Shown: one piece after another, positions 10,203 through 11,919 of the stretch | Position numbering within the stretch: the stretch's first letter is position 1 | Layout: each line of letters starts with the position of its first letter | DNA from: Escherichia phage Ro45lw | Direction: 5' to 3' (one strand) | DNA length: 39,793 bases | Sequence record: NC_048136.1 | Made by a program: the position numbers and the translations under genes | Notes under the pieces: generated by a model | Databases searched by the model: none | What the model was told of the DNA's origin: nothing | The model's input: only the letters and a program-made list of their open reading frames with translations

Positions 10203-11903
10203 ATGTCATATGAAGACCAAGAGCAGGACGATAGTGTCTTCCTCTACCACACCGAGTGTCCAGACTGCGGGTCTTCGGATGCCAATGGTGTCTACTCAGA
10301 CGGGCATATGTACTGCTTTGCGTGTGACCCGTCAGTCGCTTGGAAGAAGGGCGATATGGAACTGACAGAGGGATACACACCCTCAGGAGGAAAGAAGCAA
10401 GTGAGCAACCTGTTAACGTGGGGCGAGAACTCTGGACGATATGTCCCGCTTCCGGCCCGTGGACTATCCGCTGACATCTGCAAGAAGTATAGCTACTGGG
10501 TCGGTATGATGAAGGGCAAGATGGTGCAGGTGGCAGACTACTACGACAGGTCCGGGACCAAAGTAGGACAGAAGGTCCGAGACGCTGAGAAGAACTTCAC
10601 GGCTATTGGTAGCGTCAAGAACGACCTATTGTTCGGCTCACAGCTCTGGTCCGGTGGCAAGAAGATTGTCGTGACCGAGGGTGAGATTGACTGCCTGTCC
10701 GTGGCTCAGGTCCAAGAAGGTAAGTACCCGGTGGTCTCCCTTCCGCTGGGCGCGAAGTCCGCGAAGAAGACTCTGGCAGCGAACCTTGAGTACCTCGACC
10801 AGTTCGACGAGATTATCCTGATGTTCGACATGGACGAGCCGGGACGAGAGGCTGTAGAACAAGCAGCTCCGGTCCTCCCTGCTGGCAAGGTCAAGGTCGC
10901 ATTCATCAATGGGTACAAAGACGCCAACGCTGCACTTCAGGCGAAGGACTTCAGGGCCATTCAGGATGCAATCTGGAACGCAGTACCTTTCGTCCCGGCT
11001 GGGGTAGTAAGCGCCAAGTCGCTGAAGGACCGTACCCGCGAGGCGATGCTTAAGGCTGAGACTGAAGGTCTCCTGTTCTCGTCCTGTAAGACACTTAACG
11101 CAATGACCCTCGGTGCGCGAGCTGGGGAGCTTATCATGGTGACTTCAGGGTCAGGCATGGGTAAGTCTACCTTCGTGCGTCAGCTCCTCTTAGAGTGGGG
11201 CAGAGGTGGTAAGCGTGTAGGAATGGCAATGCTGGAGGAGGCAGTCGAGGAGACGGTTCAGGACCTCATGGGTCTGGATAATAACGTCCGTCTCCGACAG
11301 TGCAAAGAGCTGAAAGAAGCAATCCTTCAGGATGGTCGGTTCGACGAGTGGTATGACAAGCTGTTCAATGACGACATGTTCCACTTGTACGATTCGTTCG
11401 CTGAGTCTGAAGAAGACACGCTGTTCGCTAAGCTGGCCTACATGGTTGACGGGCTGGACTGCGATGTCATACTGCTGGACCACATCTCTATCGTGGTGTC
11501 CGGTATGGAAGATAACTCCGATGAGCGTAAGACCATCGACAGAATCATGACCCGTCTCAAGAAGTTTGCGAAGACTAAAGGCGTGGTCGTTGTGGTCATC
11601 TGCCATCTGAAGAACCCGGAGAAAGGTAAGTCACATGAAGAAGGTCGTCCTGTCAGTATCACTGACCTGCGTGGCAGTGGTGCTTTACGCCAGCTATCTG
11701 ACACTATCATCGCACTGGAGCGTAACCAGCAAGGCGATACTCCTAACGTTGTCCAGCTTCGTCTGCTTAAGTGCCGTTTTACTGGTGACACGGGACTGGC
11801 TGGATACCTTGAGTACAACAAGCTCACGGGCTGGCTTGAACCGATTAGCTTCACTGAAAGCAGCGGAGAGTCGGATAGCTCTTGGGAAGAACAAGACTTC
11901 TAG
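10203..11903 (+). CDS. 4: DNA primase/helicase
   Basis: Zn-ribbon CPDCGSSD...CFAC, TOPRIM region, Walker A GSGMGKST, and a C-terminal block aligning with T7 gp4. Confidence 0.95.
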
Positions 11904-11919
11904 TCTGTAAGGAGAAGCA

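Follow-up and report, generated by a model that had tools for sequence, protein, structure and literature searches.

The window analysed in this study is the whole 39,793-nucleotide (nt) sequence of Escherichia phage Ro45lw (NC_048136.1). It begins and ends with exact 190-nt direct terminal repeats (1-190 and 39604-39793), and thus represents the complete linear genome of a T7-like phage. Its closest relatives belong to Kayfunavirus, namely Shigella phage SFP20 (90.7% nt identity), followed by Cronobacter GW1, Dev2 and Citrobacter SH4. The subject of this report is a 91-codon open reading frame (ORF) lying in the +1 frame over the 3' end of gene 4, the primase/helicase gene (Table 1). The first base of the ORF is the second base of codon 478 of the gene 4 product (gp4), the ORF overlaps the last 89 codons of gene 4, and it ends 7 nt beyond the gene 4 stop. 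A first-pass annotation, made from the sequence alone, had described it as an ATG-initiated frame for a membrane-like peptide, which could correspond to the small T7 genes overlapping gene 4 or be an artefact of gene 4 codon bias. Comparison with the ORF list and the raw sequence showed that the coordinates and the N-terminus quoted there were exact.

Table 1. Features of the window discussed in this study; positions are counted from the first nucleotide of NC_048136.1.
Feature	Position	Strand	Remarks
Gene 4, primase/helicase, 566 amino acids (aa)	10203..11903	+	Pfam T7 helicase/primase N-terminal domain, Toprim, DnaB_C; phrog_239
Overprinted ORF, T7 gene 4.2 homologue, 91 codons plus TAA stop	11635..11910	+	+1 frame of gene 4
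ATG start of the ORF	11635..11637	+	Last two bases of gp4 His478 (CAT) and first base of Glu479
Ribosome-binding site TAAGGAG of the next gene (ATG at 11920)	11908..11914	+	First three bases are the TAA stop of the ORF
Shine-Dalgarno-like sequence GGAGAAAGGT	11618..11627	+	AAGGT 7 nt before the ATG; within gp4 codons E-K-G
T-skewed third positions of gene 4, codons 478-530	11634..11792	+	Third-position T 0.45 against 0.22 +/- 0.05 expected, z=4.3
Predicted transmembrane (TM) helix 1, residues 4-22	11644..11700	+	Kyte-Doolittle 19-residue peak 2.15; AlphaFold helix 2-25
Predicted TM helix 2, residues 34-52	11734..11790	+	Kyte-Doolittle peak 2.37; AlphaFold helix 30-88
Hydrophilic basic C-terminal helix, residues 53-91	11791..11907	+	Conserved T-T...G-L-N-R-L motif
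Nearest upstream phage promoter TAAACTATCACCTAAGGGA	10132..10150	+	
Phage promoters	2402, 5485, 7180, 8020, 10132, 12445, 16777, 19982, 20969, 25438, 33569, 39044		
T7 17.5-like holin-like single-TM ORF, 64 aa	35662..35856		
T7 18.7-like o-spanin, lipobox LTAITSGC	36322..36588		+1 frame, within i-spanin-like 145-aa gene 36219..36656

The 91-aa product was matched by Pfam family PF17576 (DUF5480) at 29.7 bits (gathering cut-off 25; E=6.2e-7), and phrog_5140 covered its residues 1-88 (E=6.4e-37). BLASTP against T7 gp4.2 (NP_041978, 112 aa) gave 51% identity over 70 aa (E=4e-13). In the T7 reference record, gene 4.2 occupies 12988..13326 and is read in the +1 frame relative to gene 4A (11565..13265), and the overlapping ORF starts 1423 nt after the start of gene 4 in T7 and 1432 nt after it here, both offsets leaving a remainder of 1 on division by three. 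The codon alignment placed the ATGs of the ORF and of T7 4.2 on the same His-Glu pair of the gp4 motif K-G-K-(S/A)-H-E-E-G-R, and in both products two hydrophobic segments are followed by T-T...G-L-N. The proposed correspondence with the small T7 genes that overlap gene 4 can therefore be narrowed to gene 4.2, on frame, start site, sequence identity and DUF5480. Profile, position with frame, and domain layout all agree with membership of DUF5480, and on these grounds the ORF is taken as the orthologue of T7 gene 4.2. The two differ at their 3' ends, as T7 4.2 and its annotated relatives are 104-140 aa long whereas the ORF of the window ends inside the ribosome-binding site of the next gene and is without the non-overlapping tail module, which in T7 is a stretch of 20 aa ending in ...FRWRVPF.

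The same ORF has been annotated as gp4.2 in T3 and K1F, and as gp21.2 or gp22.2 in Citrobacter phages SH3-SH5 (gp21.2 in SH4). A word-indexed protein search with the ORF returned two matches only, the homologues of Citrobacter phages SH4 and SH5, probably because gene callers rarely call an overlapped ORF. Exhaustive profile searching of 1.84 billion representative proteins recovered 12 real family cluster representatives of 58-137 aa, the closest two of which came from Citrobacter T7-like phages; a further hit, the 767-aa repetitive sequence P0015, was discarded as a false positive. No distant or stand-alone homologues were found among these 1.84 billion proteins, which is consistent with birth by overprinting inside the T7-like phage group. 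When the 91-aa product was used in tblastn, 964 phage records were matched, 817 of them by one uninterrupted match over at least 80% of the query, and the hosts included Klebsiella, Escherichia, Salmonella, Yersinia, Enterobacter, Citrobacter, Pectobacterium, Erwinia, Dickeya and others. Among the 60 matches listed of the 964, most carry primase/helicase as the sole annotation at that position.

The description of the product as a membrane-like peptide was borne out by two 19-residue Kyte-Doolittle peaks (Table 1), and two hydropathy peaks above 1.6 were present in 20 of 21 homologues. The AlphaFold model, of moderate confidence and built on a three-sequence alignment (predicted local distance difference test score 68), consists of a helix at residues 2-25, a four-residue turn and a long helix at residues 30-88. 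The Ser-Lys of the loop preceding TM2 is kept in 7/7 clades through the fixed CAG CAA codons of gp4 Q509 Q510. Over 76 ORFs, residues 53-90 contain a mean of 7.7 Lys/Arg against 3.6 Asp/Glu, with approximately two Lys/Arg at the N-terminus and approximately one in the loop; this distribution of charge suggests a topology with both termini inside (N-in/C-in) and a basic cytoplasmic helix. A Foldseek search of viral structures returned only two uncharacterised Klebsiella phage homologues, the remaining matches having E>0.1 and generic-looking helices, and structure thus gave no functional lead.

The comparative set comprised 80 related IMG/VR loci together with T7, SFP20 and SH4. Gene 4 was aligned codon by codon and the alignment was reduced to 28 non-redundant sequences representing about 12 deep lineages, 20 of these sequences being non-redundant carriers of the ORF. 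The length of 91 codons is not by itself beyond chance: the window contains 70 ORFs that reach 90 aa, roughly half of which lie within real genes or antisense to them, and the last 89 codons of gene 4 stay open in the +1 frame in 3.5% of synonymous-codon shuffles of the window genome alone. Its significance rests instead on comparative and compositional tests. Read in the +1 frame, gene 4 contains 19-28 stops over its first ~477 codons, but the last ~90 are free of them; this holds for the window and for nearly all relatives, down to a gp4 identity of 60%. The check proposed in the first-pass annotation, a search for stops in close relatives, found no interruption of the frame in any of the 21 close relatives or in six other deep clades. 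The stop-free run common to the 20 carriers spans 97 codons (470-566), the next-longest shared runs being 38 codons in the +1 frame and 11 codons in the +2 frame, and all other frames of the overlap contain stops in most genomes. Antisense and +2-frame ORFs over the same stretch, such as a 138-aa ORF at 11438..11854 on the minus strand, were rejected as they are interrupted by stops in most relatives. Under synonymous shuffling the probability of an open frame was 0.0085-0.08 per genome, giving a product of ~2e-11 over seven lineages that share at most ~70% nt identity. Four-fold wobble identity between these lineages is 0.38, against 0.27 at full saturation, and with synonymous sites near-saturated their treatment as independent is reasonable, though not exact.

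The start codon exists because His478 of gp4 is encoded by CAT rather than CAC. All carriers of the ORF have CAT at this position, and the conserved His nearby ('CHLKNP') is encoded by CAC in almost every sequence; among the other His codons of gene 4 the fraction of CAT is 0.07-0.50, and the chance product for CAT in every carrier is ~1e-4. Seven sequences have CAC at this site and are without the start ATG: L030 and the six non-carriers L027, L059 (Morganella phage MmP1), L079, L081, L082 and L083, of which L081 and L083 are nearest to Pseudomonas phages. The six non-carriers also lack the other features of the ORF, L030 being the exception. Two Dickeya phage Luksen-like loci (L033/L035) keep the ATG and the codon skew described below and stop after 54 aa, so that they encode the two hydrophobic segments only, and a hairpin-only form of 58 aa was also found (P0014). 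The existence of these 54-58 aa forms suggests that the hairpin is the conserved core.

One of the non-carriers, L027 (IMGVR_UViG_3300006879_000270), shares 90-99% identity with L022 along most of gene 4 and about 80% in the overlap (last ~85 codons), where its +1 frame contains four stops, the start site reads CAC and the T skew is missing. Its 3' end would fit either a recombinant origin or rapid decay once the overlapping gene had been lost.

The most telling result concerned codon usage in gene 4, which differs under the hydrophobic half of the ORF. In the window, the fraction of T at third positions under this half is 0.45, compared with 0.18 in the rest of the gene. The 20 carriers gave values of 0.45-0.58 at codons 478-530, above every upstream 53-codon window, and 0.18-0.33 elsewhere, while the six genomes lacking the ORF remained at baseline over the same codons. 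Since the wobble base of gene 4 is the middle base of the ORF codon, NNT codons give Leu, Val, Ile or Phe in the ORF. A null distribution of hydropathy was generated by resampling, from the rest of gene 4, codons for the same gp4 residues (2000 resamplings). The mean hydropathy of the +1 frame in the window was 1.34 against an expected -0.40 +/- 0.34 (z=5.0), a value reached in 0/2000 resamplings. The corresponding z was 2.5-6.1 in 20/20 carriers and approximately zero in the six ATG-less genomes without skew. The hydrophobic peptide is thus no by-product of gene 4 codon bias, and codon choice is locally bent to encode it. The earlier suspicion of a codon-bias artefact is strongly contradicted by this local skew, which is absent in the relatives lacking the ORF.

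Synonymous differences in gene 4 of the carriers amounted to 0.84 of expectation in the overlap, the lowest of any 89-codon window, as against 1.04 elsewhere, and the ratio in the overlap of non-carriers was ~1.0. Between deep clades, the observed/expected ratio was 0.78 for codons 478-530 and 0.71 for codons 531-566, with an upstream minimum of 0.895. Within clades, the ratio for TM1 was 0.9-1.0; as suppression there is weak, a strong sequence-specific constraint is not claimed and the constraint on TM1 is described as compositional. These results show that selection acts mainly on openness, the start codon and hydrophobic composition rather than on the exact sequence.

In relatives the ORF continues 10-142 nt past the gene 4 stop in the form of short tail modules (3-47 aa), and the same modules recur in otherwise distant clades. 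Cys-rich types (CQCPxCDW, CNGAYCWC, EWCSCEHCC and QCxCPWD) occur alongside others such as DIADYKNF and ...WRVPF. The variable columns in four alignable tail groups were distributed 5/5/28 over codon positions 1/2/3 (binomial p=4e-7), and this excess at position 3 is the signature of purifying selection on protein in the ORF frame. As the tails are too short and contain no start codon, reading of the frame must begin within gene 4 and continue past its stop. In the ORF of the window just 2 residues (7 nt) follow the end of gene 4, with no such C-terminal extension; among the 76 ATG-initiated homologues, only the two 54-aa hairpin-only forms are shorter. As the tail is variable, modular and dispensable in T7, and hairpin-only forms exist, it is a common rather than a defining feature of the family. 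The ORF of the window is a minimal, tail-less, otherwise ordinary member of the 4.2 family.

Tail-bearing loci include L004, L023, L047, L036, L040, L022, L057 and L034. Several tails carry 3-4 cysteines in CxC/CxxC arrangements, and from this pattern the Cys-rich tails may bind metal. Some tails finish exactly at the start codon of the next gene (..ATGTTTAA).

With regard to expression, the ATG is preceded by a Shine-Dalgarno-like sequence (Table 1), and the same ribosome-binding context, AAAGGTAAG....ATG, has been reported for a Citrobacter phage homologue (PMC4925675). About 12 promoters of the phage-RNA-polymerase type, with consensus TAAACTATCACTATAGGGA, were recognised in the window, 11 of them within 3 mismatches, whereas 0 would be expected by chance. 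Gene 4 is flanked by those at 10132 and 12445. T7 has promoter phi4c 317 nt upstream of 4.2 and phi4.3 just after it, whereas the window has no promoter match just after gene 4 and none inside it within 3 mismatches of the consensus. The ORF would therefore have no dedicated transcript and would depend on internal initiation on the gene 4 message, which would place its expression in the class II (DNA-metabolism) period.

On the comparative sequence evidence, it is highly likely that the ORF is a selected protein-coding gene and not a codon-bias artefact. The fuller account, which we hold to be likely and favour with good confidence, is that of a genuine gene overprinted in the +1 frame of gene 4, orthologous to T7 4.2, translated by internal initiation and encoding a membrane hairpin. 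According to this account, ribosomes would start internally on gene 4 mRNA at the AUG of His478-Glu479, aided by the Shine-Dalgarno sequence AAGGU 7 nt upstream, and the 91-aa product would insert in the inner membrane as a helical hairpin. The MKK N-terminus and the basic C-terminal helix would be cytoplasmic, and TM1 (residues ~4-22) and TM2 (residues ~34-52) would be joined by a short loop that closes with the invariant Ser-Lys. Selection keeps the start codon, excludes stops and forces NNT codons in gene 4, so that the overlap frame reads Leu/Val/Ile/Phe.

Several observations weigh against this account. The predicted anti-Shine-Dalgarno duplex of -6.6 kcal/mol falls in the top 10.5% of ATGs in the window and is weaker than the median of called genes (-8.7); moreover, the Shine-Dalgarno sequence is dictated by the conserved K-G-K residues of gp4 and is therefore not independent evidence. 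No ribosome-profiling or peptide evidence for T7 gp4.2 or any homologue was located in the literature searched; a T7 proteomics paper reports ~50 phage proteins detected. The two-helix inner-membrane hairpin is probable as a prediction, drawn from hydropathy and charge counts only. Constraint on the amino acid sequence is weak, the ORF being 55-67% identical to its SH4/SH5 homologues whereas gp4 is 96% identical (SH4). L030 has ACG in place of ATG and nevertheless retains an open hydrophobic frame. Among the full-length forms in the set of 76 ATG-initiated homologues, that of the window is the shortest, with 91 aa against 93-140 aa. A viable T7 deletion starting from 13,278 removes the C-terminus of 4.2, showing the T7 tail to be dispensable (PMC8923235), and disruptions in the non-overlapping part of T7 4.2 indicated low essentiality on 11 hosts (PMC11482910). 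Finally, the toxicity of T7 Gp4.2 on over-expression is non-specific, 34 of 53 T7 genes being toxic in the same screen (PMC13483052).

Other explanations for the frame were considered against the same data. That the ORF is non-coding, its openness and hydrophobicity following from the gp4 sequence and codon bias and the DUF5480 and phrog_5140 matches merely echoing gene 4 misread, is very improbable, although nested ORFs of at least 90 aa are common in the genome, stops are generally scarce in the +1 frame of gene 4 (where further ORFs of 51, 46, 32 and 72 aa occur) and the single-genome shuffle probability is only 0.035. Conservation of gp4 also partly forces +1-frame similarity between relatives, and basic residues of the ORF come free from acidic codons of gp4 (GAA GAA giving AAG AAG). 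This explanation has been largely refuted by the present data, since hydropathy and third-position T both exceed what codon resampling yields (1.34 against -0.40 +/- 0.34, and 0.45 against 0.22), the skew is limited to codons 478-530, where in 20/20 carriers it is above that of any upstream window, stops are present and the skew absent in genomes that share the gp4 motifs but have CAC at the start site, the joint probability of openness is ~2e-11 over seven near-saturated clades, and the non-overlapping tails evolve as coding sequence. A nucleic-acid signal in the 3' end of gene 4, acting in mRNA structure or stability, as a replication or primase signal or in control of the downstream gene, would account for the synonymous suppression being strongest there (0.58 for codons 534-558), where signals of the downstream gene could sit, and the stop of the ORF does overlap the ribosome-binding site of that gene. 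Such a signal in place of a protein is nonetheless hardly credible, because the skew is strictly three-base periodic and accompanies a conserved ATG and the absence of stops in one frame only, the region has no promoter-like repeat, and the tails beyond gene 4 vary at codon position 3 in the same frame. Rfam gave no match at gathering thresholds in the whole window, and at E<=1 the stretch 11400-12000 gave only a meaningless histone stem-loop (E=0.25).

A programmed frameshift out of gene 4, producing a membrane-tethered gp4 isoform with a hydrophobic C-terminus, has a precedent in the frameshift at gene 10A/10B of T7-like phages, which is established knowledge and is mentioned in PMC11482910. 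The +1 frame opens 8-12 codons upstream of the ATG, and the ATG-less L030 retains its open hydrophobic frame, both counting in favour of a frameshift. This mechanism is judged very unlikely, however, as the ATG is kept through the disfavoured CAT in all carriers and is lost together with the ORF features in non-carriers, the upstream stop lies only 8-12 codons before the ATG, and fusion would remove essential C-terminal helicase motifs of gp4; no canonical slippery heptamer was noticed on reading ...AAG AAC CCG GAG AAA GGT AAG TCA C..., a stretch inspected by eye with no pattern search run. The last explanation concedes that the family is real and holds the copy in the window to be a decaying, truncated and non-functional remnant. 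This copy runs only 7 nt past the gene 4 stop, compared with tails of 10-142 nt in relatives, and its intergenic region is ~40 nt shorter than in the closest relative SFP20. We give very little credence to decay, given that the copy retains its start codon, open frame, hydropathy skew (z=5.0) and conserved GLNRL region, that hairpin-only forms of 54-58 aa recur independently (Luksen-like L033/L035, and P0014), that the tail is dispensable in T7, and that genomes which lack the ATG and the ORF (L027 and the MmP1-like L059) show no skew.

As to function, T7 Gp4.2 expressed from pBAD33 inhibits growth of E. coli in minimal medium, a defect relieved by stringent-like alleles of RNA polymerase, and gave no consistent two-hybrid interaction with RelA, SpoT or RpoZ (PMC13483052). 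A non-essential accessory role in the class II period, at the host inner membrane or on host physiology, is offered as speculation, as is the view that a replication or lysis component is less likely; with an accessory factor, the tail modules might speculatively serve as exchangeable cytoplasmic interaction surfaces. It is conceivable, though on balance doubtful, that gp4.2 arose de novo by overprinting in an enterobacterial T7-like ancestor and acts as a dedicated inner-membrane effector whose horizontally exchanged tails, several of them Cys-rich, adapt it to different host targets. In line with a de novo origin, the ORF is absent from L081, L083, L027, L079, L082 and L059, and homologues beyond the family are not recognisable. 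By analogy with the over-expression phenotype of the T7 protein, such an effector could possibly be tied to stringent-response physiology. If true, the effector reading would mean an unrecognised host-interaction gene in more than 800 sequenced phages.

Small membrane proteins overprinted on other phage genes are known, the lysis gene E of phiX174, embedded in gene D, being an example. Like the ORF described here, E is ~90 aa long with N-terminal hydrophobic helices, lies in the +1 frame of an essential gene with its middle codon positions at the wobble positions of that gene, and is toxic alone (for T7 Gp4.2: PMC13483052). The two have no sequence relationship, and the ORF has two predicted helices rather than one, lies among DNA-metabolism genes of a phage with its own holin, endolysin and spanins, and offers no evidence of lytic activity or of a target in cell-wall synthesis. 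Closer at hand is the 18.7-like o-spanin within the 18.5-type i-spanin gene of the same window (Table 1), a well-accepted case which shows that an envelope protein embedded in the +1 frame is an arrangement used by these phages. The 18.7 product differs in being a lipoprotein with a known lysis role and in being fully embedded, whereas the 4.2-type protein is a predicted hairpin that extends beyond gene 4 and carries neither a lipobox nor a signal peptidase II site. Class II holins and pinholins, for example S21 of phage 21, have two TM helices, and the ORF product resembles them in its two predicted TM helices, N-in/C-in topology and charged cytoplasmic C-terminus, a likeness at the level of prediction. 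A holin or lysis role for the ORF was rejected at the level of family membership, as no holin family was matched at E<=1 in Pfam or PHROGs and the lysis genes are located at 35662-36656, whereas the ORF belongs to the gene 4-gene 5 region.

A hypothetical overlapping ORF 4.2 has been part of the T7 annotation for a long time, so the novelty of the window itself is low, and a modest wider interest attaches to the evolutionary signal and the sparse annotation. On the present evidence, selection has maintained the frame across enterobacterial T7-like phages to the extent that codon choice is distorted in gene 4, an essential replication gene. The ORF is missing from most modern annotations of this phage group and ought to be added. 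If gene 4 were synonymously recoded or 'refactored', a second gene would be lost unnoticed. As a probable small membrane protein of the DNA-metabolism period, the product is also a testable candidate for a host-interaction function in the best-studied phage family.

Some further features of the genome were recorded. A second +1-frame ORF starting with ATG (51 aa, 10210..10365) overlaps the 5' end of gene 4, where T7 has gene 4.1, and a T3-type 51-aa ORF has been listed for the gene 4 5' region (PMC4925675). The +1 frame over gp4 codons 7-44 is stop-free in 20/20 carriers and also in outgroups, so this ORF may simply reflect the composition of the zinc-finger region. The DNA polymerase gene is split over 12523..15292, with a 672-aa ORF at 12523..14541 ending in ...FAYMAWVH and the C-terminal 57 aa (DELQIACRT...) at 15119..15292. 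An HNH endonuclease ORF (131 aa, 14621..15016) lies between the two parts, and the Rfam group I intron model aligned over its full length at 14529..15126 with 35.8 bits (E=2e-7), below the gathering score of 50. The arrangement looks like an endonuclease-carrying group I intron, and introns of this type have been reported in the DNA polymerase genes of some T7-like phages. Two small ORFs, at 18013..18423 (136 aa) and 29244..29693 (149 aa), have in common a 69-nt repeat with 71% identity (18154-18222 and 29436-29504), which suggests that they are related genes inserted among the structural genes, perhaps homing endonucleases.

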